A stretch of 64,000 nt of DNA from Eledone cirrhosa (taxonomy: Eukaryota). A program made the translations under genes and the position numbers. The first letter of the stretch is position 1, and every line of letters starts with the position of its first letter. The stretch covers positions 67,456,001 through 67,520,000 of the forward strand of contig OZ024742.1 of the NCBI GenBank assembly GCA_964016885.1, given 5' to 3'. Under the pieces are notes generated by a model. That model did no database searches. It worked only from the letters and a program-made list of their open reading frames with translations, and was not told the DNA's origin. Positions 1-57,699 of the stretch are shown here, piece by piece.

Positions 1-3000
1 GGGAGGCGGCTTGATCATTACAATAGACTCGGTGGTCAACCGGATCGGTCCCACCCTTGACAGCAGTTGTTCGACATAGCCCCACAGATCGGCTACGCCC
101 GAGCAGTGTACCAATGCGTGTGCAACGGTTTCCTCGTCGCACACGCATCTGGGACAGATCTTTTTGGCGGGGTCCCTACCCGGGCGCCCGTGTCTGTAGA
201 GCCTTTCTCGAACGGGTAAAGCCCCTCGGTAGCACTGCCAGGCCAGGGACTTCTGGAAGTTGTCCATAGGTCCCGGGCTGAATGTCCTACCGAACAGGCT
301 GGCCAGTTCGTCCTCCTCCATGTCTAGGGCTTCTCCGAGGGTGTCGTCGCACCTGCTGCGTACCAGCCCTCTATAGAATGTTGCGGTGGAGTCTCCACTG
401 ATAACCGGATCCGCCTGCCAGAGGGCGGTGAGCGCCTGGGCACACTCAGTGTGCCAGGCGCCCAGTTTTCTCGGTCTTTGCTTGACCCAGGATTGCAGCT
501 CGGTGAGTGAGACGAGTCTGGGAAAGGTTCGTCTCACAAACGAGGCCCACACCGGTTGTCCGGTGAGGAATACGTAAAGGTGCCGTAGCCTTAATGCGTG
601 TTTACGCATCATTAGCCACGGCATCCCCAGCCCTCCTTTCGAAGGGTGTTGACAGCAGATGGATCTCCTCACCATAGGAGCCCGCCTCTTCCAAAGGAAT
701 TGGAAGAGCGCGCGCTCCATCTTGGTGAGGGTTTCCCTTGGGCAGGGCACTACGGTCAGGCGGTAGTAGATGACGGACGCTATGTAAGTGTTCGCCACCT
801 CCGCCCGACCTTTCAGGGATAGTTTGCAACTGGCCCACTTCTGGGTCAGTGCAAACACCCTGTTCGTAACCTCCGCCCAGTTTTTCTCCACCTGGAGGTC
901 CGGTCCGAACCAGACCCCGAGCAACTTCACCGGGCCCTCCGTCCAGCGTCCGACGACGCCATCGGAGGGCATCGGTCTGCCCCTCCACGTGCCGAGTTGC
1001 AAACCGATCGACTTGTCCCGGTTCAGCTTAGCCCCTGTGAACTTTTCGTACTCCTCCAGTAAGGTGCCGACCGCCTCGATTTCGGAGGCCGTCGACACCA
1101 TTACTGTCACATCATCGGCGTAGGCTGACACCGCTTTCCGCAATCCCGGTTCCAAAGGGATGCCCTGCAACAACTCCAACTTCCGCAGTAGTGGCTCGAG
1201 AGTCAACACATACAGAAGGGAGGAGAGAGGGCACCCTTGTCGGATGGACCGCGCGATTTTGAACGGCTCCGAGAGGTAGCCGTTCACCTTGACCCTAGAG
1301 CAGATGCGGCTGCTGTGCATAGCAGTGATCCAGCCCCTGAAAACGGGTCCGAAGCCTGCCGCCGCTAGCACCGCATCCAGGTAACCATGGTCGACCCTAT
1401 CGAACGCCTTAGATTGATCCAAGTTGATCAGAGCCCCACCAAAGCCGGGTTCGTTCCCAACCCTCTCTATGATGTATCGCATGAGGTGGAGGTTGTCATG
1501 GATGGACCTGGACGGGATAGCGCATGTCTGCGCATCTCCCACCAGGTTGCCCACGACAAGCGCCAACCTCTTTGCTAGCACCTTGGCCAAAATCTGTAAC
1601 TCTGTATTTAGCAGTGTTATGGGCCTGAAGTTACTTATTTCGTCCCCCTTGTTCTCGTCCTTCCTCACTAGCGTGACTACGCCCTTGGTCACAGTACAGG
1701 GAATTCTCCCGTTCTGTTGCCAGTTGCAGTCGACCGCCTCGAGGAGATCGGGGAACAAGTCCGGCATAGCTAGATATAATTCGTAAGGAAGACCATCGAG
1801 ACCCGGGGATTTGCGTTTGCCGCATTGGCTCAGCACGTCCTCTATCTCAGCGGCCGAAATCGGCTCCTCGCAGGACTTCGCCTCCCTGTCCGAGAGGCGC
1901 GGCAGGCCGTCGAGGTATGGACCGAAGTCCACGTTCCCAACCGGCTCCCCGCCCCTCCCGAACAGTCAGGCAAAGTGCCTTTGAAAGGCCTCACACATCT
2001 GCTTAGGCTCAAGAATCGCCCGTCCATCCAGGTCTCGCAAAGACCGGATGGTGGATTTAGTTCCACTGTTGGCCTCTGTCACGCGGGCCCAGCTAACAGC
2101 TTTGGTCCCCTCGTTCCCTAGAGCACGTATTTTACTTCGGACAACGCAGCCTTCGTGCTTCGCGTCGAAAAACTGGCTCAAAGCCGTTCTCGACGCTAGC
2201 ACTCTGGCCACGTCGCCGCTTCTAATTGCCTCTTCTACTCTATCTATTAGCTCCCTTTCCTTCCTATTCCTATCCGCAGCTAGAACCTTACTAAATTCTA
2301 TCGAGACTACTCTAATCTCTCTCTTTAGAGATACCCACCACCTGCTGTTGACGATCGCTCCAGTCAACCGTTCCTTAACTAACGTACTAATCCGATTCCT
2401 GTAGGCTCTACTTGCCGGCAAGGACAAGTTGAGCTTCCAGTAACCGGGGCCCTGTCTATGGGTTCTGTCAAGGTTGACCATGCAGGTCACTAATTTGTGG
2501 TCTGAATAGCCAACCATGCGCATTTTTGGACAACTTAAAAAGTCCTTATCCTTAATTCTAACTAAGAACCTATCTAGGTACGACCTAGATGATCCACTAC
2601 GATTTGCCCAAGTCCAGGTTGGCGCAGTCGGAAAATCTAGTCGATATCTATCGGCCAGGTCAAATCGACCGATTAACCCTTTGAGGCTATTACACCCCTC
2701 TCTATCGGGGCAGGCCCCTACGTAGTCCCAGCGTGCATCTAGGATACCATTCCAGTCCCCCACTAATAGCAAGGAGCGGGACGTCCCTAGAAAAGTCTCC
2801 AGACGATGGAAGAAGTCCGGCCGCATTGACCCGAAAGGGCCGTAGGCGGCTACCAACCTAAACGCTCCGCCTTTACCACTGCCAAGGTCCAGAACCACTA
2901 GTCGACCCTCCGGGTCCAAATGTACCATCTGTGTTGCGAGACCCAGATGTTTTTGCAGCAGAACGACAACTCCACCCCCACCTCCGGGCTGACAGAGAGA

Positions 3001-3201
3001 TGCGTGCATCTCAAAGTCATCAAAGGTGGGGGCCAGCTGTCGCACGTTGCTGATCCGGGCCTCGCAAATAACCATCACATCTATACGTTGTGACCTGAGG
3101 TCATTTAGAAGCATTGCTTGCTTCCAAGTTGAGCCCAGGCCACGCGCATTTAAACAGCCTACTCTTAGCATAGCCGTGTTGGTGGTGAAGAGAAAAGGCA
3201 C
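1..3201 (-). pseudogene. LINE ORF2 (APE endonuclease + reverse transcriptase), disrupted
   Basis: LNARGL, VGDWN, SYLDRF, SDHK, GPGYWKLN in ORF 1966-3201; other frames give LDQSKAFDRVDH (~1385-1420), SIRQGCPLS (~1225-1250), AYADD (~1110-1125). Confidence 0.9.
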
Positions 3202-3499
3202 TTACCTCTCTGCGTCCCGGGTATCGGACTGCACAATTTCCATTAGGGTGGGGGATGGGTTGTTGGGTGGGGTGGTGGTTTGTGGAAGTGTGGGGGCATC
3301 AGTGTGTTGTGTGGTTGGGGAGTTTGGAGTTGTGTGGGTGTTTGGGGAGGGGGTGGGATAGTTTTTTAGGAGGACGCGGTTAATGGGCCCGACGCAGGGG
3401 GGACCCACGTCCTCTTTAAAATTGTTTTTTAAAGTTTTATAGGTGTCCTGTGGGGCCTTAATCATTTTGAGGTGGGGGAAATCCCCTGCCTGGGTGAAG

Positions 3500-4997
3500 T
3501 TAGGCCCTTGTGTTTTTATTAGATTGTTGTTGTACACAATGTTTAACAGTTTTTTGTTTCTTGTATTTATGTATGTGTATGCATGTTTTTGTTTTTGTGT
3601 GGTGTTTTTTGTTTGCTGTTGTTGTGAGCTCTTTTGTGTTGGTGTCAGTGTTATATTTTGGGGGGGGGGGGGGTTTCATTTGTGTGTCTGAGGTGTGTTT
3701 TCTTTTTTTTCTTTTGATTGTGTGGAAGTGCTCCTCCTCGTCTGACGACGAACTAGGGTCATCTTCCGCGTTGGAGGGGAGGGGTATATTTTCGGGTTGT
3801 GTTTGCGGTACGGGTGTTTTGGAAATTGTTTTTGTTTTTTGAGTGGAGGGGATGGGTTGGACATTGTTTTGTTTTGGTTTCAGCTGTGGTGGTTGTTTTT
3901 GTAGTGGTAGTTGTGGTGATTGTGTTGGTTGTGCAGTTGTTGGTGGTGTAGGCAGGATTGGGGTTTTCTTATTAAGTTGGGGACAGACAGCCCTCAGGTG
4001 ACCTCTGGTTCCGCAGAGGTAACACGAGGGCCGTCTACCCTCAACGGTAATGTTGATGAAGGTTAGATCATCCAGTATGACGCGTTCAGGGATCTGGGCG
4101 ATCCTTTCGGGCCTCATTTGAACTACAAGTTCGAGGCTCGTTCCACTGAACGCGTCACCCGATGCCTTTCCCATGGACACCAGCATGTCATCCTCCAGGT
4201 CCAGAAAACCTGTCAAAACCCACCATATGTCCATAATCGGCAGGATGGTGTGGATTTTTATTTTTTGTGTTCTTCTACCCATGTACGTAGGGTAGAAGGT
4301 GTATGCGGTGGATGTGATTGGTTTGATGGACAGTTTCACTGCTGTGTCCCTGTCCTTCATGAGAATGGATAGACTCCCGTAGAGTCTATCCTTCTGAATG
4401 AAGGTGATGTCCTTCATGACGTCTTTTAAAACCAGCTCTATCTCGCTCTGTGATGGTTGAGCTGGTTTTTTACTTTTGTTCGAGATTGTCCTCAACATGA
4501 CCGTGTTTAGGAGTCTCTGGCTTTTTAGTTCCGGGGGGGGAATGGATTGTGAATGAACCATTTTCCCCGTACACTATATATTTTTTCGCATCCGCCAGTA
4601 GTTCCTTCGCTTTTGTTATATCTACTGGCAGATAGTCGAGGGTTTTCCTTGTCGTCTCGGCGAAGGAGAAATTTTGTTTGTTTGTGTTGTTGTTGTCGTT
4701 GGTGGTGTTGTTGTTATCATTGTTGTTGTTGTCACCGTTATTGGTCTTGTTGTTGTTGTTATTGTTATTGTTATTGGTGTTGTTTTCGTTCGTCGCATTG
4801 TTGTTGTTGTTGCTGTTGCTGCTGGTTCTTTGGGTTGTTGCCATGGCAACGTCAAGTTGTCGGTTAACAGGTGGAGAGAATTCTTCCTCTGGCTGACCTT
4901 TCTTCTTGACCTCTGCTACTGTGACAGTGGAAGGGGGAAGCTGTAAGTTCATCTTCCTCTTTCCTCCTTCGAATTTTGGTGAAGAAGCTTCGGCCAT
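3500..4997 (-). pseudogene. LINE ORF1 (gag-like), split by a frameshift into 4470-4997 and 3500-4561
   Basis: CYLCGTRGHLRAVC zinc knuckle preceded by VEGRRP; N-terminal poly-Asn; basic/acidic C-terminal tail. Confidence 0.8.
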
Positions 4998-5527
4998 TTA
5001 AAAAAATATTGACTTTTCAACAAGAAAAAACTTCTTTTTTTTTGTTTAACTATTTCGCCTAAAGGCGTAGAATATTTTGAGAGACTGACCAGATCAAAGT
5101 TTGACCTGGCAGTCCCTCTACAAAATGGTACAAAAATTAAAGTTATCAGACAAGAATTTCTATAGAAATTTAAACAGAACTTACTCAGCAAGTTATACGC
5201 GTGTGTCCATCCCAGAGATAGATAGATAGATAGATAGATACATATATATGTGCGTGTGTGTGCGTGCGTATGCATGTGTGAGAGTGTGTGCCTGTGTCTT
5301 TCTTTATGCAGAGGCAAATAGAGTATTGTACATGTCTATACAAATTTACACATGGAGTATTTAGATATAAAAATGCCAGACTCATTTATTTACAGGAAAA
5401 TTGAACGAATAATAAGCAGCTCTATAAGATTTTCGAAATGTTGGGCTTCTCAACAGAAGTTATATATACCAGCTAAATAACCCCAAGAAAATGCATATCT
5501 AGATGTGAATGATGCATGTAAATTCAT

Positions 5528-5929: not shown

Positions 5930-5991
<62 letters not shown>

Positions 5992-6248
5992 TTGCGAGGT
6001 TTTTTATATGAAATCGTGTGTCCAGACAAATATTTTTCTACTTGGGGAGGGTCATATTTGTGTAATATTGCCAGAATTAATAACAGAACACACTCACTGT
6101 TTGGTTGGTTTTCGCTTTTCGCTTCTGTGTCTTTTATATCGGTAATCTAATATAATATAATATACTCGGTCCTCAATGTTGCCATTGACTGACCGACGGT
6201 CAAAAATAATACAGATACAATATAGACACAAACACATATATATAGTTT

Positions 6249-6290
6249 ATCATAAATCTTTCGTTGCACATCTGCAACATCGTCAGTGGT
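6249..6290 (-). ncRNA. Minimal hammerhead ribozyme in PLE-A pLTR
   Basis: Reverse complement of 11947-11988. Confidence 0.7.
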
Positions 6291-6605
6291 TCTATTGTTT
6301 CCTCCTGTTGAATTGTATGGCTACGCCATTTTTATTCAGTCTGTTTATATATTTATTTATTTATTTGCTTGTTTGTTTATTTTATTTTGTCTTCTTTGCG
6401 CATGCGTTTGCGTGTGTGTATAGTGTTTTGTTTGATGTGTGATGTGTGTTCGTGATTGGGTGACTAATGTGTGTTTATGTGTTTGTTGTTATAGTGCTTG
6501 TGTATGTATTTATTTATTTATTTATTTATTTTATTTTATTTTATTTTATTTACTTATTTATACTTCTCTTAGGTCAGTGTTGTTTGTTTGGGTGTTGTTG
6601 TTATT

Positions 6606-9435
6606 TCATTCATTCTTTCTGTTTAGTCTTGGTCTTCTAATTTCTATTTCACTGGCCTCTCTGATTTGCCTATCTGCTGGGTAATTTCTATGTTTAGATA
6701 TTATTCTAATTTCTATGTTGTCTATGTTACCGTCATGTTGTTGTCTGGCATGTTGGTATAGTACTGAACCGTTATTTCGTCCTTTTAGTTCCCCCCAGTG
6801 TTGGTCTATCCTTTCACCTATGCTACGAGCTGTCTCACCTATGTATGTTGTTGTCATGTTTCTGCAGGTACCCTCTGTACATCTCATGCTATAGACTACG
6901 TTTCTAGTTTTACAGTTTATCCGGGGGTTTACCTTACATATGATACATTTCCTATTGGTACAGTGGGTTTTCTTAAAAGGGTAGGTTTTGCTGATCAGGG
7001 ATTTTATGGTGGTTCCTGGCTTTTCTACCACCTTAATTTTTAAGTGGGTCTTTCTCAGGGCCTATTTACACTGGTTAGCTAATTTCCCTCCAGGGGTAGC
7101 GTCCACAAACATGACACTCTGGTATATCTGGTTGTCGTACCAATTGGTGGCTTTCCCTATCTTATGTCTAGCCCTATCTAAGCTATTCCATGATTTGCTC
7201 CTGTATAATGGGCAAATTCCTTTCATGTCCAGTTCTATGAGGGTCTTATACTTCTCCAAGGCTCCTTCGTATACTCTGACTCTGTCTCTTTGGTTGTAGC
7301 CAGAGAACTGCATGCGGTTGATGAAGTGTTGGATGTGTATTTCCATTTCTGTTGGGTCGCAAATGCGGGATACATTCTTCATCACTCGTACCAAATCTGC
7401 GATCAAAATATTAAACTTAGCACTACTGGACATTGCTGAGTTTTTGAGTATCAGGTATTTGGAGGCCATGGGTTTAGTATAGTGTGAGTGGAGAATTTGG
7501 GCTATCTCATCTAAAGTGTTAATCCAGAGTTCTGTGTCTAATACAGGTAGTCTATTGTTAGGGTGTTTGGAACGGAAGTCGATAGTTACAGTTATACTCT
7601 GGTGTATGGAATTAGCTATCTGCTGGATGCTTTCCATTGTGCTACGTTCTAAATCAAACTTGTTAGTGCTCTCTCTCTAGTGGGGATGTTCTTATAACTA
7701 TATTGATATCGTCTACATAACGAGAGTACATGATGAGGTCTATGGAGCTCTCATTAAGGAGATATTTAAGTCTACTTTCCCACCATACCATGAAAAGGTT
7801 GGCAACATCACCAGCTATGCTGACGCCAATGGCTGCTCCTTCATTCTGGGTGTAGATCTTCTCGTTGAACTTAAATATGTGGCCCTTGAGGGTAGTTTTG
7901 ATACTAGCCCCTATTGCATGTGCGACCATTTTTCTTACCTGATCATTGTTTTGGGGGGTCCGTATAGCTTTGGTCCACCCAATCCACCTTCCCATGGGAG
8001 TCTTTTTTGCCATTAAGGTTATGGTCGGGGGTCTACCCCTTATGGGTATACTAGGGCAGAAACGTCCAAGGTCGTAGCTGTCTAGGTAGTCAGTGTCGTA
8101 GGTAAGTCTAAGTAGGAGGCCCAGTTTGTCTGTGTCGATGTTGCAGAACTCCACCTCTCTCTCAATGATCATCTCCACACATCTTTTCACAGCAAAATCA
8201 ATGTTAATGGATGGGTACAGTGACACCACATCCATGCAGCCTATTATGCAGTTGGATAGGTTCCTGTTTTTGTTGCACTCACTGATTCTGCTGAGGAGGT
8301 CCTCTGTACTGTCACATACATCCGGGGACATCTTGATTATGGGGCGTATAACCATGGAGAGGAAGTAGTAGATCCTGTAGTTACTAGCTACATTAGCTCC
8401 GCATACGGGTCTTGTTGGTGGTCCTGTTGTCGGGTCGTCGACTGTCTTGTGGTCTTTGCGGAGCCCATAAAAGGGTGGTATGCCATTGTTAGACGCCTGG
8501 AAGTTGTTCACAGTGCGTCTGCTTGGCTTTAGGATATCAGTCCACATCATCATGTGAGCGTTGAGGATTTTCTCTCTCCCATCGTGTGTTTGTTGTGCAA
8601 TTTCGCTCGTGTTGGTGATGTGGGATTGCATAGCCTTGATGTAGTTCGGCAGGCTATCTATTGACATCCTACCAGACTTATCCGTGGGTAGACATACTGC
8701 CTCACCATCCCTTGTGCGCTGCTTGAGGCTAACCAAGCCTTCTACAGGTTTCCTCCCAAGTTGTTGGGACTCTGGTCTGCTCTGTCTCTCAGTATACCTG
8801 TCTACTATTTGTCTAATCTTATTTCTAGCTATGGTGAACTGTGCCTCTGTCTCGTTATCTATTTGTTGTGGTATGCAAACTCTTTTATTAAAGCGTAACC
8901 TCGTAGGATAGATATTACCCATCTTATATGTTTTGTCAGCTGGGTTGAAAAATAGTTTCTCTAAGGAGTTGTCATTATATCTATCGTCATAGTTGTGTGT
9001 GTTGCTATTATTGTTATCATGGTGGTTGTTGTTGTTCCTATCATTAGCATTATTATTATTGTAATGATTGCTAGATGTATTGTTGGTTACTTCACCGTTA
9101 TTGTTGTTGTTACTGTTATTTCTACCGTTGTGGTTGTTACTATTATTATGTTTCTTGTTTTTGTTGTGTCTATCATTAATGTTGCTACATGTATTATTTC
9201 CATTATTACCACTGTGGTTATTGTTGTTGTTGTTCGTATTGTTACCGTTATTACTACTGTGGTTGCTGCTGCTGTGTCTGTGGTTAATGTTTCTATTATT
9301 ATTGTGGTTGTTGTTGTTCTGTCTATCGTTAGTATTATTACCCTTATTACTATTTCTCACTTTCCTGTTATTTTTATTGTTATGGCTGTTATTTCTATAC
9401 TCAGAGTTATTGTTTATATTACTACTACCGTTATT

Positions 9436-9490
<55 letters not shown>

Positions 9491-10210
9491 GTTGTTGTTG
9501 TTGTTGTTTACCTTTGCATTCCAACGTATTTTTGTGAAACACTTTTCCAGCCCCGTTTTGCACTCCATAGGGTTAATCTTCTTGTAGATGGCAAATTTTG
9601 GTGGTAGCTGCAGGATTTGTTGTTCTTGTTCACTGATTAAAGTGTTCCCATAAATATTTACTGTGTGGTCATTGGTAAATTCTTCCGGTAGTTTTATATC
9701 AGTCATGCGGATATTGTCGATGTTATCTGGATATTTTTGAGAATATTCTATTTTCCTTTCTAGTAGTTTTTTTCTTATTCATCCATTCTAATTTCTTATT
9801 GAAGTGCCTATTGCATTGGTTTCGGGCGTATTTCGTTTCACGTCGGATGACGCTCATGAAGTTATCCCTCTCGTTTGGTGTGGTGAGATTTCGGACTTCC
9901 TTACCGTTAATGCGTTTCTGTCTGTAAAGTTCGTTGACTTTTGTGTATGTTGTTCTTTTCATATTAACTGTTATTGTGTGTTTTAGTCGTTCAGCTTGTG
10001 TTTTGTTCAATAATAAATTATTTACTTGTTTTGATATGTTTGTTGTGTATATTTTGGAGGAAACACAGTGTTTTAAGAAGCGGATTTGATCTGTTGTTAT
10101 TGTAGTTTTTATATAACAGAAATAACCTTTCAGCTTGGCACAAGCTAATGCCATAACGGCGATGAATTAGTTTTGCGAAGTTTTTTATATGAAATCGTGT
10201 GTCGAAACAC
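6606..10210 (-). pseudogene. PLE polyprotein (N-terminus, RT, thumb, Cys linker, GIY-YIG endonuclease), with stops and frameshifts
   Basis: PTDKSG, TRPVCG, MDVVSLYPSI, GAAIGVSIAG, RYVDDI, LPVLD, CTNRKCIIC linker, NVVY..C..YIGETARS..ERI..H. Confidence 0.9.
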
Positions 10211-10591
10211 ATAACCTCAATGGCAAAAAAGACTCCCATGGGAAGGTGGATTGGGTGGACCAAAGCTATACGGACCCCTGAAAACAATGATCAGGTAAGA
10301 AAAATGGTCGCACATGCAATAGGGGCTAGTATCAAAACTACCCTCAAGGGCCACATATTTAAGTTCAACGAGAAGATCTACTCCCAAAATGAAGGAGCAG
10401 CCATTGGCGTCAGCATAGCTGGTGATGTTGCCAACCTTTTCATGGTATGGTGAGAAAGTAGACTTAAAGATCTCCTTAATAAGAGCTCCATAGACCTCAT
10501 CATATACTCTCGTTATGTAGACGATATCAATATAGTTATAAGAACATCCCCACTAGAGGGCACTAACAAGTTTGATTTAGAACGTAGCACA

Positions 10592-11668
10592 ATGGAAAGC
10601 ATCCAGCAGATAGCTAATTCCATACACCAGAGTATAACTGTAACTATCGACTTCCGTTCCAAACACCCTAACAATAGACTACCTGTATTAGACACAGAAC
10701 TCTGGATTAACACTATAGATGAGATAGCCCAAATTCTCCACTCACACTATGCTAAACCCATGGCCTCCAAATACCTGATGCTCAAAAACTCAGCAATGTC
10801 CAGTAGTGCTAAGTTTAATATTCTGATCGCAGATTTGGTACGAGTGATGAAGAATGTGTCCCGCATGTGCGACCCAACAGAAATGGAAAGACACATCCAA
10901 CACTTCATCATCCGCATGCAGTTCTCTGGCTACAACCAAAGAGACAGAGTCAGAGTACACGAAGGAGCCATGGAGAAGTATAAGACCCTCATAGAACTGG
11001 ACATGAAAGGAATTTGCCCATTATACAGGAGCAAATCATGGAATAGCTTAGATAGGGCTAGACATAAGATAGGTAAAGCCACCTCATGGTACGACAACCA
11101 GAGATACCAGAGTGTCATGTTTGTGGACGCTACCCCTGGAGGGAAATTAGCTAACCAGTGTAAAAAGGCCCTGAGAAAGACCCACTTAAAAATTAAGGTG
11201 GTAGAAAAGACAGGAACCACCATAAAATCCCTGATCAACAAAACCTACCCTTTTAAGAAAACCCACTGTACCAATAGGAAATGTATCATATGTAAGGTAA
11301 ACCCCCGGATAAACTGTAAAACTAGAAACGTAGTCTATAGCATAATATGTACAGAGGGTACCTGCAGAAACATGACAACAACATACAGAGGTGAGACAGC
11401 TCGTAGCATTGGTGAAAGGATAGACCAACACTGGGGGGAACTAAAAGGACGAAAAAAAGGTTCTGTACTATACCAACATGCCAGACAACAACATGACGGT
11501 AACCTAGACAACATAGAAATTAGAATAATATCTAGACATAGAAATTACCCAGCAGATAGGCAAATCAGAGAGGCCAGTGAAATAGAAATTAGAAGACCAA
11601 GACTAAACAGAAATAATGAATGGAATAACAACACCCAAACAAACAACACTGACCTAAGAGAAGTATAA
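10592..11668 (+). CDS. PLE C-terminal ORF (RT thumb + GIY-YIG) in the inverted arm; 5'-truncated
   Basis: 358-aa ORF nearly identical to the minus-strand fragments; YIG reads YRG; upstream RT fragment 10211-10590 has a stop. Confidence 0.8.
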   Translation: MESIQQIANSIHQSITVTIDFRSKHPNNRLPVLDTELWINTIDEIAQILHSHYAKPMASKYLMLKNSAMSSSAKFNILIADLVRVMKNVSRMCDPTEMERHIQHFIIRMQFSGYNQRDRVRVHEGAMEKYKTLIELDMKGICPLYRSKSWNSLDRARHKIGKATSWYDNQRYQSVMFVDATPGGKLANQCKKALRKTHLKIKVVEKTGTTIKSLINKTYPFKKTHCTNRKCIICKVNPRINCKTRNVVYSIICTEGTCRNMTTTYRGETARSIGERIDQHWGELKGRKKGSVLYQHARQQHDGNLDNIEIRIISRHRNYPADRQIREASEIEIRRPRLNRNNEWNNNTQTNNTDLREV

Positions 11669-11692
11669 ATAAGTAAATAAAATAAAATAAAA

Positions 11693-11731
<39 letters not shown>

Positions 11732-11946
11732 ATACACAAGCACAATAACAACAAACACATAAACACACATTAGTCACCCAATCACGAACACACATCACAC
11801 ATCAAACAAAACACTATACACACACGCAAACGCCTGCGCAAAGAAGACACAATAAAATAAACAAACAAGCAAATAAATAAATAAATATATAGACAGACTG
11901 AATAAAAATGGCGTAGCCATACAATTCAACAGGAGGAAACAATAGA

Positions 11947-11988
11947 ACCACTGACGATGTTGCAGATGTGCAACGAAAGATTTATGAT
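11947..11988 (+). ncRNA. Minimal hammerhead ribozyme in PLE-A pLTR
   Basis: acca-CTGACGA-t-GTTGCA gatg TGCAAC-GAAA-gatt-TA-tgat; stem I weak. Confidence 0.7.
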
Positions 11989-12227
11989 AAACTATATATA
12001 TGTGTTTGTGTCTATATTGTACCTGTATTATTTTTGACCGTCGGTCAGTCAATGGCAACATTGAGGACCGAGTATATTATATTATATTAGATTACCGATA
12101 TAAAAGACACAGAAGCGAAAAGCGAAAACCAACCAAACAGTGAGTGTGTTCTGTTATTAATTCTGGCAATATTACACAAATATGACCCTCCCCAAGTATA
12201 ACAATATATATATATATATATATATAT

Positions 12228-19212: not shown

Positions 19213-19217
<5 letters not shown>

Positions 19218-19403
19218 TTCAAAATATTAATAAATATAGACATTTATGTAATCAAATATATTTTATTATATATATTTCGGAGGTACTGTGCTGTTTCCTC
19301 AGTACGTCCTCATCAGATAAAATATATAAGTTGATGTATGAAATACCTCAACTATGCTGATGGTTCAATTCCAGTCTTCCAAGACTGGAATTGAACCATC
19401 AGC

Positions 19404-19407
<4 letters not shown>
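19213..19407 (-). mobile_element. Short HHR-bearing element (same family as the 3' end at 49823-49990) ending in a perfect hairpin
   Basis: Shares attaattcaaaatattaa...agtacgtcctcatcagataaaat with 49823-49935; hairpin 19355-19404; (TA)n on both sides. Confidence 0.75.
19257..19326 (-). ncRNA. Type-I hammerhead ribozyme, intact core
   Basis: tatattttat-CTGATGA-ggacgtactg..cagtacctcc-GAAA-tatata-TA-ataaaatata. Confidence 0.85.
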
Positions 19408-27520: not shown

Positions 27521-27611
27521 ATATATATATATATATATACAATATTTGCTTATATGTACATGTATGTACATATAGACACGGAAACACACCACATGCATAT
27601 ATATATATATA

Positions 27612-28511
27612 TATATAAAAGTAGCGAAACAAACGGTTATTAAACAATTTTCTAAATAAATTAAAAAATGATTAAATAATCACCTGTTCAGATGCTGTTA
27701 CCGACGGTTTCATCATTCCGAAAGATTGGAAATCCAACGAATTTCCAAAGGAAAGAAATGGATCTTCAGACAGCCCTATTTCCACGCTATAAGGTATAGC
27801 AAGTAAATATTATGCTCCCTGCCCAACGCATGCGGTCAAGCCGTTAAAGTGACACACACGCAAATCAGGTCGCTGATAAAAGCTGGATATTATAATCATT
27901 TTTTAATTTATTTAGAAAATTGTTTAATAACCGTTTGTTTCGCTACTTTTATATTGTTCTGGTATCTCGAATTAGTGCCATTGAACCACATGTATTATAA
28001 ACAACTTGAATATTTCTCCAAGTACATTGTACCTGTCGAAGTATCCATCCACTTCTATAATTTATTCTCCTTACGTAGAGAACAAAACGTTGAATAATGC
28101 CGCTAATTTTAGTGGCAATTCGACATGTTTATAATATCCAGCTTTTATCAGCGACCTGATTTGCGTGTGTGTCACTTTAACGGCTTGACCACATGCGTTG
28201 GGCAGGGAGCATAATATTTACTTGCTATACCTTATAGCGTGGAAATAGGGCTGTCTGAAGATTCATTTCTTTCCATTGGAAATTCGTTGGATTTCCAATC
28301 TTTCGGAATGATGAAACCGTCGGTAACAGCATCTGAACAGGTGATTATTTAATCATTTTTTTATTTATTTAGAAAATTGTTTAATAACCGTTTGTTTCGC
28401 TACTTTTATATTGTTCAGGTATCTCGAATTAGTGCCATTGAACCACATGTATTATAAACAACTTGAATATTTCTACAAGTACATTGTACCTGTCGTAGTA
28501 TCCATCCACTT

Positions 28512-28519
<8 letters not shown>
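27612..28519. mobile_element. Fold-back retrozyme-like element, ~457-nt monomer family
   Basis: Inverted segment 27612-27895, then 1.4 tandem monomers (27893-28060 repeats at 28350-28519); (TA)n flanks. Confidence 0.8.
28250..28330 (+). ncRNA. Type-I hammerhead ribozyme, intact core (inverted copy at 27694-27774)
   Basis: gctgt-CTGAAGA-extended stem II (tcattt..ttggaaat/atttccaa..gaatga)-GAAA-ccg t cgg-TA-acagc. Confidence 0.85.
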
Positions 28520-28542
<23 letters not shown>

Positions 28543-28596
28543 TGTGGCTGGACGGTCGCTTTAGATTCTTTTAGTGTTGTCTGAAATGTATAGCCT

Positions 28597-28668
28597 TACA
28601 ACGCTGATGAAGCATAGGCTAATCATTTCTATGAACAAATTAGTTGGTGAAACAGATCCTGTTGGATT
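28597..28668 (+). ncRNA. Decayed hammerhead-like motif of another family
   Basis: CTGATGA-(gctaat/attagt)-GAAA-cagatcctg-TT; stem I poor. Confidence 0.4.
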
Positions 28669-28929
28669 TGTACGTGTGTGTTAGATAGGTATCAAGGTAC
28701 GTATTTTCACTTTGATTTATACTTTGAATTTTGTGTGTCTACTTTGCCTTCCATGGGCTATAGATTCCATACACTGGTGGTTTTTCCCTGTTTGACTGCT
28801 GGCGCACTATATCTCTCTCTGGAGTGTTATCTTTTTCTACATATTATATTATAAAAAGCTCGGGATTCCTTCTCCTTTGGGCACATTAATGACAGGGTAT
28901 AACGAGAGTCTGTGGCTCCGTTAATTTAT

Positions 28930-28959
<30 letters not shown>

Positions 28960-28967
<8 letters not shown>

Positions 28968-29915
28968 AAATAATAAAATAAGTCAAATGTTTCAAATTTG
29001 GCTTCGTTTATTACTGCTATATATATTTTGGTGACAGCCATCTTTGGCTGTGACCTCTTCAGGCAGTCCGAATTAGTGTGGTAGAGACTAGTACACATGT
29101 TGTTTAGGTGTATAACTTTGTCAATACTCTGATATGCCCAGTTCCGGGTTGGGTTGTTATATCACTGAGGAACTGGAATCATATGAATTCAAACAAACAA
29201 ATTTCAGAGTCAAAGGGCCTCTTCTCCTCTCACTGGTCAGTTGTTAGAACATTCCTCAGTCAAAAGTCTATAGCAATTCGTTCTGAGGCAAGCCAATCTG
29301 TAGTTGTTGTTCTTGTTATTGTTAGGTACATCTGACCTCTATTCTTGGTTGGTAGTGATGTTATTGTTGGAGTCAGCTAAAAAAGAAATGTGATAAACAC
29401 ATTTTTTTTTAGCTGACTCCAACAATAACACCACTACCAACACAAGAATAGAGGATGGATGTACCTAAGAATAACAAGAACAGCAACTAGAGATTGGATT
29501 GCCTCAGAACGAATTTCTATAGACTTTTGACTGAGGAATGTTCTAACAACTGACCAATGAGAGGAGAAGAGGCCCTTTGACTCTGAAATTTGTTTGTTTG
29601 AATTCATATGATTCCAGTTCCTCAGTGAAATAACAACCCAACCAGGAACTGGGCATATCAGAGTATTGACAAAGTTATACACCTAAACAACATGTGTACT
29701 CGTCTCTACCACACTAATTCGGACTGCCTGAAGATGTCACAACCAAAGATAGCTGTCACCGAAATATATATAGCAGTAATAAACAAAGCCAAATTTTAAA
29801 CATTTGACTTATTTATTTTATTTTACATTACTCCGGAGTAACCAAACCAACCTGCGCACTTCGTCGAGTGCCCCAATATGCATACTGAGGTGTTGGTATA
29901 CAACCAACATATACT
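28960..29915. mobile_element. Fold-back HHR-bearing element, ~425-bp inverted arms plus 3' extension
   Basis: 28960-29385 is the reverse complement of 29402-29825; HHR motifs at 29013-29067 (-) and 29723-29777 (+). Confidence 0.8.
29723..29777 (+). ncRNA. Type-I hammerhead ribozyme
   Basis: actgc-CTGAAGA-stem II (imperfect)-GAAA-tatata-TA-gcagt. Confidence 0.8.
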
Positions 29916-36643: not shown

Positions 36644-37258
36644 TTAGAATTGGAGCTTTGAAATAGCAATATATATATGGATGTATATATAATGTATTTT
36701 GCAATACACTTTATGCTTAATTAAAAGCATTTTGAAGACCGTATGCTATTGTTTTAGAGTAGTGACAAATTCACTTACTTTAATCTCAGCAAACAGGGGA
36801 GATAAGCCACCAAGTCCTTGTTTCGCTTTTGTTGAAGCTTATCAAGGCTAACTACCCCTCCTGTCTACTGAGATTACTGATGTTATATTCTTATAGAATT
36901 CTAGTAAATAATCAGGAACTGGTTATACAGAGCGATTGTTGGTCAGGCAGAAATTAAAAATTAGAATTGGAGCTCTGAAATAGCAATACATATATGGATG
37001 TATATATAATGTATTTTGCAATACACTTTATGCTTAATTAAAAGCATTTTGAAGACCGTATGCTACTGGAATTCTATAAGAATATAACATCAGTAATCTC
37101 AGTAGACAGGAGGGGTAGTTAGCCTTGATAAGCTTCAACAAAAGCGAAACAAGGCCTTGTCGGCTTATCTCCCCTGTTAGCTGAGATTAAAGTAAGTGAA
37201 TTTGTCACTACTCTAAAACAATAGCATACAGTCTTCAAAATGCTTTTAATTAAGCATA
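36644..37258. mobile_element. Fold-back retrozyme-like element, 317-nt monomer (U3-A8 HHR)
   Basis: ttagaattggagct at 36644 and 36961 (period 317); inverted segment 37066-37258; (TA)n flanks. Confidence 0.85.
37121..37165 (+). ncRNA. Minimal hammerhead ribozyme with U3-A8 core variant
   Basis: agcc-TTGATAA-gctt caacaa aagc-GAAA-caag gc cttg-TC-ggct; the inverted copy 36805-36849 has a mutated cleavage triplet. Confidence 0.85.
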
Positions 37259-37339: not shown

Positions 37340-40300
37340 CAGAAAGTGAACATGGGACGCAGAAAACATTTTTCATCTAAACCCCAACGCATGGCAGTAG
37401 ACGCACAACGAGAAAGAGAGATGAGGCCAAATCAATTAAACAATAATCGCCCTACAACATCCCAACAAATTTCGACAAATGTAATTCAGTTAACACACCA
37501 ACAACAACTTGCAAAAATACACCAAACGTTCAGAGGAAGGAACAGGTCAATTGAAGGTCTGGCAAAGAATCTTACCTTTCCAAGAGCAACATGCTCTTTC
37601 CATAATGCCACAACATAATGCGGGGAGTCAAATCTTATCGCTGGCCACATGAACCCAAATCTCTGTGGGTGCTTCCAGGGAGAAGTGAAACTCCCTCGAC
37701 TTGCCCGTTCTCCACCTAAAATACTGAAATATTTCGATATCACTAAAGCAGGAAATTCTTTTCTCCATAAGATACGTGATAAAACAATGTGCTCGCTTTA
37801 GCTTCAATTGGTTGCCAAGAGATTAAAGCAGCAGGATTTAGTCCCACATTTAAGATCCAAAGTAAGATTTGTCCTATTATTGGATCACTATTTCGAAGTG
37901 ATGCTTCACCCAAGTTTGCGCAGCTTTACTTCTATGATACTTCCTGAGCTTCAGAATCGCTTGCATCATGTTAATATCGATGCTGCTGCCGTGCAGGACG
38001 TGCAAGAAGAATTGCACTACTGCAACATCTATATAAGAAGGTTCAAGACGGTCATTGAAATGCCAGTCTCTGAAAATGTGAATATTGTCCTACATTCTGA
38101 CAAAGCAAAACCCACTGATTTTCATTGTCGCACATATAATCTTCCCATGGCATCTGAGATTGCTGTTATTCAGCGTGATACAGCATTAGGTCTTTTGGAT
38201 GTCATCATTCATAAAAGAGATGGTGGTCATCAGAGGATTCATCAGTTGCACCGTTCTTATGATCCTCTGCATTATGTGCTCTTGTTTCCTTGGGGGGAAT
38301 GATGGGTTTCAGGTCGGTTTGAAAAGGATTGACTACAACCACACACACACACACCCACTGATTTCTACTGTTATCGGTTTCAGGTTAGGCAAGGTGACTG
38401 TAACATTATCATGAAGAGCAGGCGGCTGATGCAACAATATGTTGTAGATGCCCAGGCAAAAATAGAACATTGTCGCCTCAAATGGTCCCGCAACAATCAA
38501 ACCATGATACGAGCTGAAAAGTATGAGGGTTTGTATGATGCCGTGGCTGAGGGAGATTCAGTAAATGCAGGCCGGAGAATTGTTCTTCTTCCTTCAATCT
38601 ATGGTTCCACTCGTTTCTACAGTGAGTGCTTTAAGAATTCGATGATTGTGGTTCGACACATGGAAAAGCCAACTTATTTCATCACTGTAACAACTAACCC
38701 TAACTGGGATGAAATGAAAAATAGTTTGCACCCTGGTGAAGAACATAGAGACCGTCCTGGTGTTTGTGCAAGAGTCTTCAAGATCAAGTATGACAGCCTC
38801 ATGGATGACATAACAAAGAAAATGTCCTAGGAAAAGTTGTGGCTCATTCTGCTACAATAGAGTGGCAGAAACGAGGCCTCACTCATGCTCATATTCTGCG
38901 GATATTGGCTGAAGATAGCATCCTGCAACATTCATGGCCCATGTGGACAAGCTTATATGATGTGTTCATGCATGGAAGGGCTAGGACAACAACGCCATTG
39001 CTCAAAAGATTATCCCAAGGCATTCAGACAAACCACATTTGTTGCCGAAAGTTCCTTTCCGGAGTATAGAAGAAGGGATAGACAGCAGAGTGGTCACACC
39101 CATACAATCAAGGTCAAGAATTTACTGTTGATAATCGTTAGATTGTTCCATACAACCCTTTCCTCTCATTGAGATATCAGTGTCACATCAATTGTGAGGT
39201 TGTCCACAGTGTCAGGGCTGTTAAGTACTTATATAGGTCATCACAACAGGATCAGACAAGATCACTTTCACTATTAAGGATGATCAAGAAAATTGTGTCC
39301 GTGCCCAAAATGAGATTGAGACCTATATCAATGCACGGTACATCTCAGCCAGTGAGGCATTCTGGAGAATCTATAAATTTCCATTACATCATCGAAAACC
39401 GCTAGTTGAAAGGTTGCCTTGCCATTTCTCTGGGGAACAAATGGTCGTGTATGAGCGAGGGCAGAAAGAAAGTGTTGTTTCTAGGGGACAGCCAATGACT
39501 AAGTTGACGGAACATTTTAAACTGAATATCATAGACCCACTGCCACAAAACATATTATATATTGATATTCCTAAATATTTCACTAGGACAAACAAGAAGT
39601 GGCAAAGAAGAAAAAAGGGACATCGGGATGGGGATCAACAATTTATGTGTGGACGCATTCCAACAGCATCTCTCAGTAGCCATCAATCTGAATTATATTA
39701 TCTCAGAATGATCCTACATGACAAGGATGGGGCAACTTCATACAAATATTTGAGGACAATTGAAGGAGTTGAATTTCCAACATACCAAGAAGCATGCAGG
39801 AAACTTGGTCTGTTAGATGAAGATAGAGAAAAAGATAAAGCTATGGAAGAGGACTCATCCATTACGCTTGGTCCTCAGCTGCGAGAGATATTCTGCACCA
39901 TTTTATTGCACAGCATGCCAAATGACCATCTGCAGTTCTGGGAGAAATGAAAGAATTGTCTTGCAGAGGATATCATGCATGAACGTCATGAGGAAATCAT
40001 GTCCATGCAAACCGTGCGGATTTTTCTACAGAAGATCCAACAAAGGCTTCAGCATGATAGCTTGGACATCTATGCCAAATATGGACTTCCTCGGCCAGAC
40101 CCAACTATTGTTGCCATACCAGAAATCAACAGGGTTCTTATGGCAGAAACTGATTTCAATACACACCAACTGCAAGCAGATATAAATGAACTTCTGCCAA
40201 CATTGAATCCTTAGCAACCTGATATTTTTCACAAAGTAATCACCTCTGAAAATGAAAATTAAGGCAGAATGTTCTGCTTGCATGTAAGTGCAGGCACAGG

Positions 40301-41933
40301 AAAGACATAAATATCCTATTGGATTACCTCCGATCTAAAAATAAATTACACTTATCACTGCCATATCTGGAATAGCAGCCACTTTGCTTCACAAAGGTAG
40401 AACTCAAACGCAGAATTCCAAGTACAAGATTCCTCTCAATGTGACTGGTGAATCAACTTGCTTCTTCACAAAGAGTGATGTCACAGGTAAACCTATGCAA
40501 AAAACTGACCTGCTAATCATTGATGAGATAGGTATGGGATATAAGCATATCTTTGAATGCCTTGACAGGAGCTTCAAAGATGTTGTAAAAAGCCATTTGG
40601 TGGTCTAACAGTATTACTATTAGTGACTGGAGGCAGATTCTTCCAGTTGTACGTCATGGTGCTAGACCACAAATAGTTGAGGCAACCATCAAGAGATCCT
40701 ATATCTGGGAGTATGTGGAAACCGGTTAATTAATGCAAACTACTTTCTTGATGTGGGAAATTGTAACATTCCAACTTTTCCAACTGTAGGGGCATTCACA
40801 ATTCTTCTGCCAAGTGAAATTTGTGTGGAAGATGGTAATGTGTCTGGACTGTGTGATTTTGTGTATACAAATAGTCCAGGAAACTACACAAACCCACAAG
40901 ATTGGTGAATGAGTCATGGTCATCAAGTTCCCTGGTCATGAAATAATTCACAGAAGCTCTGATACAGTAGATAATGAACTGCCATATCCAATTGAGTTCA
41001 TCAACAAAATTACCTCCATCAGGCTTCCCAACACACGTACTTAAACTGAAGAAAGTCAGTTGCGTCATGCTTCTCAGAAATCTGGATTCTCTAAACGGGC
41101 ATTGCAATGGTACAGGCTTCATCATCATCAGTTTACATAATCATGTAATTGAAGTTGAAGTGGCATTCGGTCCCAATGCTGGAACAAGTTTGCTAATCCC
41201 AATGATATCACATGTATCTCAAGAGCTTGAGTTCCCTTTCACCTTTACTCGCAAGCAATTTCCTGTCAAACCAGCATTTGCCATTACATGCAACAAGGCG
41301 CAAGGTCAGACATTTGAAAAGATAGGTGTATATCTACCAACACAATTCTTCTCACATTGTCAGACGTATGTTACATTGTCACGATTACAAAAAAAGAAAA
41401 TATAAAAATATTAAATGAAAGGCGTCTGTTTGCTGACAACTGTGTCTACAAAGAAATTCTAGAGTATTGTGAAACAGCTATCACTCTCTTTTAGTTGAAA
41501 TACATTTCAGTTTCTTTTTAACTGCTAGAAAAGGTACACTACAAAAACTTAAGAAGTCTATATGGGAATACAGTAAAAAAACAATATAGCGAAGGTCAAC
41601 TCTTCATATTGGTAAATGTAATTCATTCATTCATACCAGCAGCATCTATTTTCAAATTCACTGCTTGAAGCTTCCCATCGACATTCTCAAGTGAATATTC
41701 ATGAACATTTTCCGTCAACAGTTTCATCGCTTTTCCATCTCCATTATCGCCTTTTTTTAAATGTATCATGGATAATTTTCTGATTACAGAAGTAAGTGTA
41801 ACACAGTCGTTGTTCAGTTTATGTGCATATTGTCAATTTACGTATCATATCTATGTGCATATATATTTGCGTATATCAATATGCACACTACATATACTAG
41901 CAGAAAACCACGCGAGGGTGGTTCTTCTGCTAG
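37340..41933 (+). mobile_element. Helitron, decayed autonomous element
   Basis: RepHel motifs in order; candidate 3' hairpin + CTAG at 41896-41933; 5' end not defined. Confidence 0.85.
37560..41465 (+). pseudogene. Helitron Rep/PIF1-like helicase, many frameshifts and stops
   Basis: HRSYDPLHYVLLFP, QQYVVD, YFITVTTNPNW, IEWQKRGLTHAH (HUH), AVKYLY, GTGKT, IIDEIGM, CNGT, RKQFPVKPAFAITCNKAQGQT. Confidence 0.92.
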
Positions 41934-43998: not shown

Positions 43999-44156
43999 AA
44001 GAAAAGTGTGTACAGTTAAGAAAGAAAATAATATTTGTAAAAGAATGTTATTACATTTTTTGTGAAAATAATATTTTAATCATATTTTCTTTAGTTTTCT
44101 CTAGAGAATTATATTTTAGATAATGAAAGTTTGAGATACAAAAACTATTGTCAACA

Positions 44157-44553
44157 AATTATAAGTGATATCATTAATGTTAGTATATATGCTTGCGAGG
44201 TTAATCAGTTCTCTCCCTTATAAATTGGTTCTAGTTCAGTACAGGGGTTTACATTTGGGTGACCGATTCAGCGTGCAAGCCCGTTCTATATACAGGGAGC
44301 TAATGTGTGTGTGTGTGCGTGCGTGTATGTGTTATGTATATGTATTGCACCAAATTATAAGTGATATCATTAATGTTAGTATATATGCTTGCGAGGTTAA
44401 TCAGTTCTCTCCCTTATAAATTGGTTCTAGTTTAGTACAGGAGTGTTAAATTTGGGTGACCGATTCAGCGTGTAAGCCCGTTCTATATACAGGGAACTAA
44501 TGTGTGTGTGTGTGTGCGCGTGCGTTTATGTGTTATGTATATGTATTGCACCA
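44157..44553. repeat. Direct tandem duplication, ~195-bp unit x2
   Basis: aaattataagtgatatcattaatg...gtatatgtattgcacc occurs twice. Confidence 0.9.
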
Positions 44554-44902: not shown

Positions 44903-44944
<42 letters not shown>

Positions 44945-44945
<1 letters not shown>

Positions 44946-45149
44946 GTAAACGTTCTATTTAAATTGTTGGGATACAACAAGCAAATATTTTTATAACTGA
45001 TATAAAGCACTCAACAAATATTTGGAGTAAAAATACGATATTAACAAATATAACTGATGAAAGCACACCATAATTTAACTTGGTGTCCTTGAAATATGTA
45101 TAATGAAATAAATATGGGTTTATAAATATAGTTTCCATTTGTTAATATC

Positions 45150-45152
<3 letters not shown>
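44945..45152. mobile_element. Short HHR-bearing element with inverted part; HHR motif ~45048-45105 (+)
   Basis: CTGATGA-aag.acacca..tggtgt.ctt-GAAA-tatgta; tacgatattaacaaat/atttgttaatatcgta inverted; homolog at 54618-54890. Confidence 0.7.
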
Positions 45153-45180
<28 letters not shown>

Positions 45181-45183
<3 letters not shown>

Positions 45184-45635
45184 CAAGGACGAATGGTTAC
45201 TCCTTTATTACGTTTATTCGTTGTTGATGCGCGTTTCGCTACTGATCAGCTCAAGGTTTGATCTATATCGATCTGGCCCGACTGTTTCTACTTTTGGCAG
45301 AAGGCCAGCAATTACACAGTACATTGCTGGTACTTGTACTGGGTAATTGCTGGCCTTGTGCCAAAAGTAGAAACAATTATTACTACAGAGATCCGACGAT
45401 CTTTTGATTCCAGAGTCGGGCCAGATTGATATAGATCAAACCTCTGTAATAATAATGACAGTATATCGATAGAGATCGAACTTTGAGCTGATCAGTAGCG
45501 AAACGCGCATCACAAACCAATAAACGTAGTGATGAAGTAACCATTCGTCATTGTATTACACTCTGTCTAGCTCTACACCCCGATACTCGAGTGCTCATCC
45601 GGGTGAAACTACAGCAACTTCGCATCACCCTACAT
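45181..45635. repeat. Fold-back element with a SINE 3' end at the inversion centre
   Basis: 45181-45281 inverted versus 45416-45557; SINE tail on both strands at 45283-45382; related sequence at 63845-63915. Confidence 0.7.
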
Positions 45636-53450: not shown

Positions 53451-53453
53451 CGA

Positions 53454-53962
53454 AAACATTTCGAAGACCTTATGCTATTCTTTTAGAGTAGTGACAGTCT
53501 CACTTACTTTAAATCCCCTGTTTGCTGAAAATGTTAAGTAAGTGAGACTGTCACTACTCTAAAACAATAGCATAAGGTCTTCGAAATGGTTTTAATTAAG
53601 CATACAGTGTATTGCAAAATACACTATATATACATTCATATATTTATCGTTATTTCAGAGCGCCAATTCTAATTTTCAATTTCTGCTTGACCGGCAACCC
53701 CTCTGAATAATCAGTTCCTGATTATTACTAGACATTCTATAAGAATCAAACATTCATGATTTTCAGCAAACAGGTGGAGTACTTGGCTTTGATAAGTACC
53801 AATCAGTAAGAAACATAGCTCTGTCAGCTTTATCTCCCCTGTTTGCTGAAAATTTAAAGTAAGTGAGACTGTCACTACTCTAAAACAATAGCATAAGGTC
53901 TTCGAAATGCTTTTAATTAAGGAGACAGTGTATTGCAAAATACACTATATATACATTCATAT
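53454..53962. mobile_element. Retrozyme-like element, ~320-nt family (U3-A8 HHR at 53785-53829, stem II damaged)
   Basis: Inverted 53454-53513, then tcccctgtttgctg at 53514 and 53835 (period ~321). Confidence 0.85.
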
Positions 53963-53972
53963 ATTATATATA

Positions 53973-54132
<160 letters not shown>

Positions 54133-54586: not shown

Positions 54587-54617
<31 letters not shown>

Positions 54618-54621
<4 letters not shown>

Positions 54622-54890
54622 AAAGTTCTATTTAAATTGTTTGGATACAGCAAGCAAATATTTTTATAACTGATATAAAGCACTCAGTAAATATTTGGAG
54701 TAAAAATACGATATTAACAAATGTAAACTATATTTATAAAACTATATTTATTTCATTATACATATTTCAAGGACACCAAGTTGAATTAAATGATGAAAGC
54801 ACACCATAATTTAACTTGGTGTCCTTGAAATATGTATAATGAAATAAATATGGTTTTATAAATATAGTTTCCATTTGTTAATATCGTATA
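54618..54890. mobile_element. Fold-back copy of the 44945 HHR family
   Basis: 54708-54789 inverted versus 54808-54890; both outer ends match the 44945-45152 copy. Confidence 0.7.
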
Positions 54891-55383
54891 TATATATATA
54901 TATATATATATATTTCGTTTCTGAATTTGTTTAGCAAGACTCTTTATCTGAAATCGTGTGTTGAAACCGATATTGTTATACTTTGGGAGGGTCATGTTGC
55001 CAATAAGAAACACACGCACCAGTTGCTTTCACTTCAATTTATTATATATTTATAAATTTATAAATTTACGAATCTACAAATTTATAAATTTCTGGTTGGT
55101 TGGTTGGTTCCACAACCATATAGTTGTTTATATATAGTCATAGTCCTTTCGTCACACACTCTGTGACATCTTCAGTGACTGGGGATTCCTTTCTTTGTTT
55201 CTGTGCTTTCCTTTCTTCTGTCCGACGCCATTTTGTTTCTGTGTGTGTGTTGTGTGCACAGTTTGCGCATGCGCCACATCCGGGTGCCTGTGTGTGTTTG
55301 TGTTCATTTATCTATTTGTTTATTTATTTACATGTTATTGGTTGGTTGTTTGTTCTATGTGTGTGTGTGTTTTCATTTTGTCC

Positions 55384-56046: not shown

Positions 56047-56139
56047 TTTATTTTTTTCCCCATTTGGTTCTGGCTCCTCTATACACTCTGATTCTATCTC
56101 TCTGTACCTAACCAGAGCTCTGTGTCTAGTACAGGTAAT

Positions 56140-57232: not shown

Positions 57233-57436
57233 GGACAAAATGAAAACACACGCACACATAGAACAAATAACCAACCAATAACATGTAAATAAATAAACAA
57301 ATAGATAAATGAACACAAACACACACAGACACCCGGATGTGGCGCATGCGCAAACTGAGCACACAACACACACACAGAAACAAAATGGTGTAGGACAGAA
57401 GAAAGGAAAGGCACAGAAACAAAGAAAGGAATCCCC

Positions 57437-57481
57437 AGTCACTGAAGAGGTCACAGAGTGTGTGACGAAAGGACTATGACT
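57437..57481 (+). ncRNA. Minimal hammerhead ribozyme in PLE-B pLTR (inverted copy at 55136-55180)
   Basis: agtca-CTGAAGA-g-GTCACA gagtg TGTGAC-GAAA-ggac-TA-tgact. Confidence 0.85.
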
Positions 57482-57639
57482 ATATATAAACAACTATCTG
57501 GTTGTGGAACCAACCAACCAACCAGAAATTTATAAATTTGTAGATTTGTAACTTTATAAATTTATAAATATATAATAAATTGAAGTGAAAGCAACTGGTG
57601 CGTGTGTTTCTTATTGGCAACATGACCCTCCCAAAGTAT

Positions 57640-57699
<60 letters not shown>

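Follow-up and report, generated by a model that had tools for sequence, protein, structure and literature searches.

The window, meaning the whole 64-kb stretch that was analysed, consists of AT-rich, microsatellite-rich DNA of eukaryotic appearance. It contains an insertion in which an inverted arm of 283 nt meets a plus arm of 626 nt head-to-head, with a (TA)n tract on either flank (Table 1). The element's 3′ ends lie outermost on both sides and run into the (TA)n through the element's own AT-rich letters. The inverted arm shows 4 differences in 283 nt from its counterpart at 28129-28411. The first 169 nt of the plus arm recur 457 nt downstream, again with 4 differences, and this arm starts at 27893, 24 nt downstream of the expected cleavage point of the previous unit. 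The original prediction had described this order of (TA)n, inverted hammerhead segment, plus-strand run and (TA)n, together with the repetition of the first ~170 bp at a distance of 457 bp, and the coordinates confirm both.

The 457-nt unit has a GC content of 35% and contains no long open reading frame (ORF), the longest stop-free frame of the circularised unit being 69 aa. Comparison of the unit with the window by tblastx returned low-complexity matches only. The ORF for a reverse transcriptase (RT) plus GIY-YIG nuclease that marks an autonomous Penelope-like element (PLE) is absent.

Table 1. Coordinates of the 457-nt insertion and its parts
Feature	Positions	Strand	Remarks
Left (TA)n target tract	about 27597-27616		overlaps the ATAT end of the inverted arm
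Inverted 5′-truncated arm	27613-27895	-	equals 28129-28411, without the tail; 3′ end faces the left (TA)n
Inverted-arm hammerhead	27694-27774	-	core letters intact; U·U at the stem II base and a C·A mismatch
Head-to-head junction	27893-27899		exact fit to both arms over 3 nt; over 7 nt, 6 fit and one is a mismatch
Plus arm	27893-28518	+	626 nt, or 1.37 copies of the 457-nt unit
First, 5′-truncated copy of the unit end (pseudo-LTR-like repeat)	27893-28061	+	169 nt
Rest of plus arm	28066-28518	+	with the preceding 4 nt, one whole 457-nt unit
Type I hammerhead	28250-28330	+	cleavage predicted after 28325
“Tail”	28412-28518	+	107 nt, between the two 3′ end points; plus arm only
Right (TA)n target tract	28513-28542		overlaps the AT-rich end of the plus arm

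The hammerhead motif and the folding of the unit

On the plus strand, stem I is formed by 5 bp between 28250-54 and 28326-30. The core reads CUGAAGA (28255-61), GAAA (28312-15) and GUA (28323-25), the last being exactly where the cleavage triplet had been placed beforehand. Stem II spans 28262-28311, about 51 nt, and stem III is short and quasi-palindromic, with 2 bp and a 3-nt loop. Stem II opens with U·U in both arms. In the inverted arm there is an extra C·A mismatch beside the U·U and one change in the upper stem II hairpin. Strict hammerhead scans missed the inverted copy because of these stem II mismatches. The description of both cores as intact with a long stem II thus holds for the core letters and the length of the stem, but not for its base.

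A relaxed type I scan gives 8 rows in the window, as against 0-1 in each of 20 block-shuffled windows. The region 28245-28335 folds with a z of -3.2, with 1 of 200 shuffles as good. Rfam returns no hammerhead match at the locus, either at the gathering score or at E up to 10; over the whole window it gives one weak HH9 match only (37111-37182, E 0.17). A published core search uses a spacer of 7-17 nt (PMC8557442), and the 51-nt stem II lies outside it. Families with a long stem II may be undercounted, as they fall outside both this spacer and Rfam. A literature search with one narrow phrase found no paper on an extended stem II in metazoan type I hammerheads. Five pattern matches in metagenomes were rejected as chance (19-20 nt, in GC-richer DNA), and a pattern scan of viral contigs gave 0 matches.

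The U·U seems to be the family state, since no variant at 28262 or 28311 occurs among the 40 variant rows listed of 54 from four mapped runs. The same U·U is known from the stem II base of the axolotl motif HHR_Amex2, whose stem III likewise has 2 bp; this motif is reported to cleave weakly alone and better as a dimer (PMC7229834). Pairing of stem III between two copies has been described for metazoan type I motifs (PMC4209133), and for the present motif the computed value with a second copy is -8.9 kcal/mol.

The circularised unit folds with a z of -4.7 on the ribozyme strand (0 of 60 shuffles as good) versus -1.7 on the other strand (5 of 60). The region 5′ of the ribozyme is structured (z -3.1), with all 12 control stretches between -1.9 and +2.9. 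There is no folding signal in the 3′ third of the unit (z -0.4). The ribozyme is found on one polarity of the unit only. In the isolated motif, the active fold lies 4.9 kcal/mol above the minimum fold, and it is absent from the minimum fold of the circularised unit; the predicted ribozyme activity is therefore not assured. It has been reported that only one of nine predicted retrozymes cleaved in vitro (bioRxiv 10.64898/2026.07.22.740005).

Copies of the unit in public runs

Part of the stretch is contained in nine of 15 public runs, which carry three organism labels, and six hold at least half its words. Four of the 15 (X1, X2, X3 and X13) were mapped onto one unit, the small-share run X9 being left out. 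None of the 15 is listed as an RNA run, which has no bearing on expression. Run X3 yields 197 contigs in four identity bands (35, 33, 85 and 44). The deepest listed body contigs in this run stand at 1301 and 1402 and the unit-to-unit joint at 938, these being mapping depths and not copy numbers. Run X13 provides 5376 reads with many variants at intermediate shares. These contig and read counts, together with the variants, rule out a single locus. The unit is multicopy and variable, and not a one-off duplication.

The 457-nt unit-to-unit joint is present in all four mapped runs. Run X2 has the unit closed into an unbranched contig of 487 nt (457+30; depth 3), an outcome expected of a tandem repeat as much as of a circle. 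The inverted arm's end point recurs in X1, where one contig stops at 28411 in (AT)n.

Run X13 also contains five opposite-strand joint rows at four places: 28119/28498, 28152/28302, 28171/28312 and 28237/28311-13. All differ from the window's 28129/28350, and their read geometry fits a head-to-head arrangement; each is carried by 3-6 reads with two starts, in a reduced-representation run with ligation artefacts, and 28119/28498 lies at a cut site. The window's own head-to-head junction is not among the X13 joints listed. Breakpoints fixed in all copies, the alternative originally weighed against mobility, are thus unlikely, on the thin evidence of these few reads. Pile-ups and loose ends of X13 at 28105, 28117, 28192-95 and 28284 were rejected as biological ends, as they coincide with AATT and GCATGC sites, which we take to be the cut sites of the enzymes used for the library. 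Read ends at 28518 were not counted as termini, as they may be reads crossing the unit joint.

A sister family is represented by one X1 contig of 463 nt, in which the stem II hairpin region alone is common to the 457-nt family. By eye, stem I and the base of stem II are changed on both sides and the core is kept. Its stem II is G-C-based and its stem I compensated, and its 3′ side is common to 12 X3 contigs. These paired changes speak in favour of selection on the putative ribozyme.

Other two-armed insertions in the window

Two coding elements in the window, at 5988-12207 and 54913-57647, are also two-armed, with both ends in (TA)n and broken frames. In their frames lie the RT motifs YVDD and DKSG, a CX4CXXC linker of the Neptune/Nematis type and a nuclease stretch reading VVY...YxGET. 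This stretch is GIY-YIG-like, with CCHH spacing when compared by eye with the published description (PMC8557442). There is a weak RVT_1 match (E 2e-4), and Atlas clusters with HTH_animal/GIY-YIG are found at 0.94-0.96, RVT_1 also occurring among the Atlas neighbours. Pfam gives no GIY-YIG match on the coding neighbours, and the PHROGs and PDB sequence searches gave no significant match. The single-sequence fold of one neighbour's nuclease part has a pLDDT of 42 and was left out of the evidence. An asparagine-rich low-complexity stretch precedes the RT in 5988-12207.

A tail is carried by exactly one arm in each of the five two-armed insertions measured, with lengths of 106, 47, 60, 48 and 68 nt versus 0-2 nt on the other arm. 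The five are the 457-nt insertion, the two coding elements (tails of about 47 and 60 nt) and two copies of a 320-nt family; the count leaves out 28958-29828 and the 320-nt copy at 53453-54052, whose inverted arm does not end in (TA)n. The rule that the tail is always on the longer arm was discarded: it is true in three of the five, another has arms of nearly equal length, and in the coding element PLE-B the longer arm is without the tail.

The original prediction that the 457-nt family is unrelated in sequence to the 320-nt family is borne out, with z values of -0.2 to -1.4 in four of four local alignments (the positive control scored 340 versus 27). No similarity was found between the unit and the 320-nt family plus 10 other window elements (24 comparisons, best z 2.6). 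Nor was any found with four coding-element ends in both orientations, where the best z of 2.6 was on the wrong strand; this comparison covers the 64 kb.

One coding element contains minimal hammerheads in both arms. In PLE-B, the hammerhead is about 170 nt from the 3′ end, similar to the 86 and 193 nt measured in the 457-nt insertion. This raises the possibility that the unit is a terminal repeat (pLTR or 3′ UTR) of a coding PLE family absent from the window, locally amplified and carrying a PLE hammerhead, with no independent short RNA cycle of its own. In the account of Li et al., retrozymes arise from pLTRs that are then amplified locally (bioRxiv 10.64898/2026.07.22.740005). Against this, the 457-nt period is family-wide, as the X3 joint depth beside the body contigs indicates, and among the X3 loose ends listed (113 more exist) none enters a common coding sequence. 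The motif is also without the G10.1-C11.1 pair and the extra base described for PLE minimal hammerheads (PMC4209133), both of which PLE-B has. A terminal-repeat origin of this kind is consequently considered improbable.

Tracts of (TA)n and hairpins are fragile. The inversion and partial repeat could stem from a DNA rearrangement at this one locus, with a stalled fork or fold-back at (TA)n, or else from misassembly, and no contig or read in the mapped runs spans the whole insertion. Such an event would have to contend with arms that differ at 4 of 283 and at 4 of 169 positions, with a footprint that recurs in four other window insertions of unrelated sequence, and with a multicopy family with other junctions. 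It is given very little credence.

A number of further elements were noted in the window. The core of the 320-nt family reads UUGAUAA and not CUGANGA, the 3-8 pair being swapped from C-G to U-A; such cores lie at 37125-37161 (+), inside the weak HH9 match, and 53789-53825 (+), and copies at about 12.2-12.75 kb and 36.6-37.3 kb. To the right of the insertion, in the same (TA)n cluster, is an element at 28545-28933 with a CUGAUGA...GAAA hammerhead-like core near 28605-28655. The same cluster holds a near-perfect 870-nt fold-back with degenerate cores at 28958-29828. These two elements suggest repeated insertion into one (TA)n tract. A short element between (TA)n tracts at 19215-19405 has a minus-strand type I hammerhead-like motif (core 19316) and a 52-nt palindrome. 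Additional non-autonomous families may be represented by short repeats at 44146-44553, 44915-45385 and 54588-54913, in which (TA)n tracts enclose pieces in tandem (196-nt period) or in inverted orientation. A broken Helitron remnant lies at 37802-41405 (Helitron_like_N and Pif1 2B matches). At 600-5000 (-) there is a GC-richer LINE-like element with a zinc-knuckle-type ORF1 and an endonuclease/exonuclease/phosphatase frame.

Relation to known elements and proposed route of insertion

The hallmarks reported for PLEs are a partial tandem, an adjacent inverted 5′-truncated copy, a one-ended tail and a (TA)n bias (Craig et al. 2021, PMC8557442). The insertion resembles endonuclease-bearing PLEs, of the Neptune/Nematis type by the CX2-5CxxC linker (PMC8557442, PMC11167929), in all four, as well as in the lack of a discernible target duplication and in the hammerhead within the repeated end. 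It differs from them in being without an ORF, in a unit of 457 nt as opposed to kilobases, and in its non-minimal hammerhead. The tail of 107 nt compares with 30-40 nt for PLEs in the literature, and there is no similarity to the end sequences of the window's coding PLEs. The non-autonomous PLE MRC1 of Chlamydomonas (PMC8557442) offers a precedent for a non-coding, PLE-moved class with pLTRs and head-to-tail copies. However, MRC1-type elements, as that source presents them, share 3′ sequence with an autonomous family and are mostly without hammerheads; no such partner was found for the unit in the 64 kb.

The features in common with the metazoan non-LTR retrozymes described by Cervera and de la Pena (2020, PMC7229834) are a short protein-free tandem unit, a type I hammerhead, low GC, many copies and the presence of PLEs alongside. 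The unit is longer than the 170-400 nt given there, but falls inside the 51-972 bp of a later survey (bioRxiv 10.64898/2026.07.22.740005). Stem II is also longer, at 51 nt as compared with 4 bp plus loop. In place of the arrays of metazoan retrozymes, this locus holds 1.37 units with an inverted arm and a tail. The insertion agrees with a PLE insertion in each footprint feature tested, and its sequence features are those of a retrozyme family. The family looks new and its kind has been published, the unusual traits being the long stem II and the long tail.

The most convincing account is one insertion of a non-autonomous, hammerhead-bearing 457-nt retroelement of the animal non-LTR retrozyme type, probably moved in trans by a Penelope-like RT/GIY-YIG protein. 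The origin of retrozymes from PLEs, and their mobilisation by them, has been proposed (Li, Clavereau, Pollet 2026, bioRxiv 10.64898/2026.07.22.740005). The original prediction spoke of an independent replicon using the same integration machinery. An independent multicopy family is indeed present, with a footprint common to the 320-nt family and the coding PLEs, while “replicon” was an overstatement: as the layout is that of a PLE, the unit is a non-autonomous retroelement and not a self-standing replicon.

According to Frangieh et al. (2024, PMC11167929), a PLE protein cuts AT-rich DNA on both strands and extends them, starting at two internal sites by which the tail is defined. For the present insertion, a source array would first be transcribed into a longer-than-unit RNA, either a multimer or a circle formed through hammerhead cleavage and ligation. 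The PLE protein would then nick both strands of the (TA)n tract. From each 3′-OH, reverse transcription would start at an internal AU-rich site, of which there would be two (past 28411 and past 28518), and base pairing of 4-5 nt with the target would help. Both cDNAs would end prematurely and be joined head-to-head over 3-7 nt of microhomology. This would result in two outward-facing 3′ ends, a partial tandem in one arm and a tail at a single end. Both arms run through the cleavage site, and the template RNA was therefore uncleaved or religated there. Ribozyme cleavage is described as dispensable in vitro for the reaction of the PLE protein (PMC11167929).

Three of the window's arms exceed one unit in length; they begin 24 nt (the 457-nt insertion), 3-10 nt and about 61 nt downstream of the previous-unit cleavage site. 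None of the three crosses two cleavage sites. For these starts, a linear precursor whose 5′ end was made by the ribozyme is no worse an explanation than a circle (n=3). Plain truncation, which favours short duplications, is an alternative account of them. Three read junctions fall 13-24 nt upstream of a cleavage site, which places them at the stem II base; stalling there is likewise plausible.

The arm starts bear, too, on whether the unit is a viroid-like circular RNA that replicates as RNA, with integration by the PLE machinery as a secondary event. The structured ribozyme strand and the unbranched closure of the unit in X2 would agree with such a circle, and related animal retrozymes accumulate as circles (PMC7229834). 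The closure, however, is at depth 3 in a run whose type is not known, and a tandem DNA repeat gives the same contig. The ribozyme is on a single polarity, the arms start just past one cleavage site without crossing a second, and RNA-RNA replication is merely suggested in the account of the animal retrozymes (PMC7229834). There is accordingly little expectation that replication of this type operates here.

Under the preferred PLE-mobilised reading, the locus itself is a dead end for circle production and an inactive derivative. It cannot release a unit-length RNA because there is one sense ribozyme per strand and the arms fold back; in a transcript they would pair over 280 of 283 nt (computed). 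Two consecutive units with complete hammerheads, by which Li et al. define an “active” retrozyme, are not found here.

A broader proposal is that sequence-unrelated hammerhead RNAs (the 457-nt, the 320-nt and others) share one Neptune-type PLE enzyme, which would prime both cut (TA)n strands without a common signal. The ribozyme would set the length of the insert, and the 457-nt RNA would be present abundantly in circular form, its exceptionally long stem II hiding the ribozyme from standard searches. If the template were a partly self-cleaved longer-than-unit RNA, arms would for that reason end just past the next cleavage site, as all three such arms here do, and “1.4-mers” would result. Taken as a whole, this proposal is tentative and rather unlikely. 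Were it true, the PLE-associated hammerhead would gain a role, and the enzyme moving animal retrozymes would be settled.

Which enzyme mobilises animal retrozymes has so far been argued from co-occurrence and pLTR similarity (PMC7229834; bioRxiv 10.64898/2026.07.22.740005). No description of an inverted arm plus tail on retrozymes was found in the literature searched, which lay outside most subscription journals and supplements; the supplements might show similar insertions. A retrozyme-type unit with the full PLE footprint, beside coding PLEs of the same footprint, addresses the matter more directly. What the insertion contributes is structural evidence for the movement of retrozymes by PLE enzymes, and the question becomes testable through the ends of hundreds of copies.
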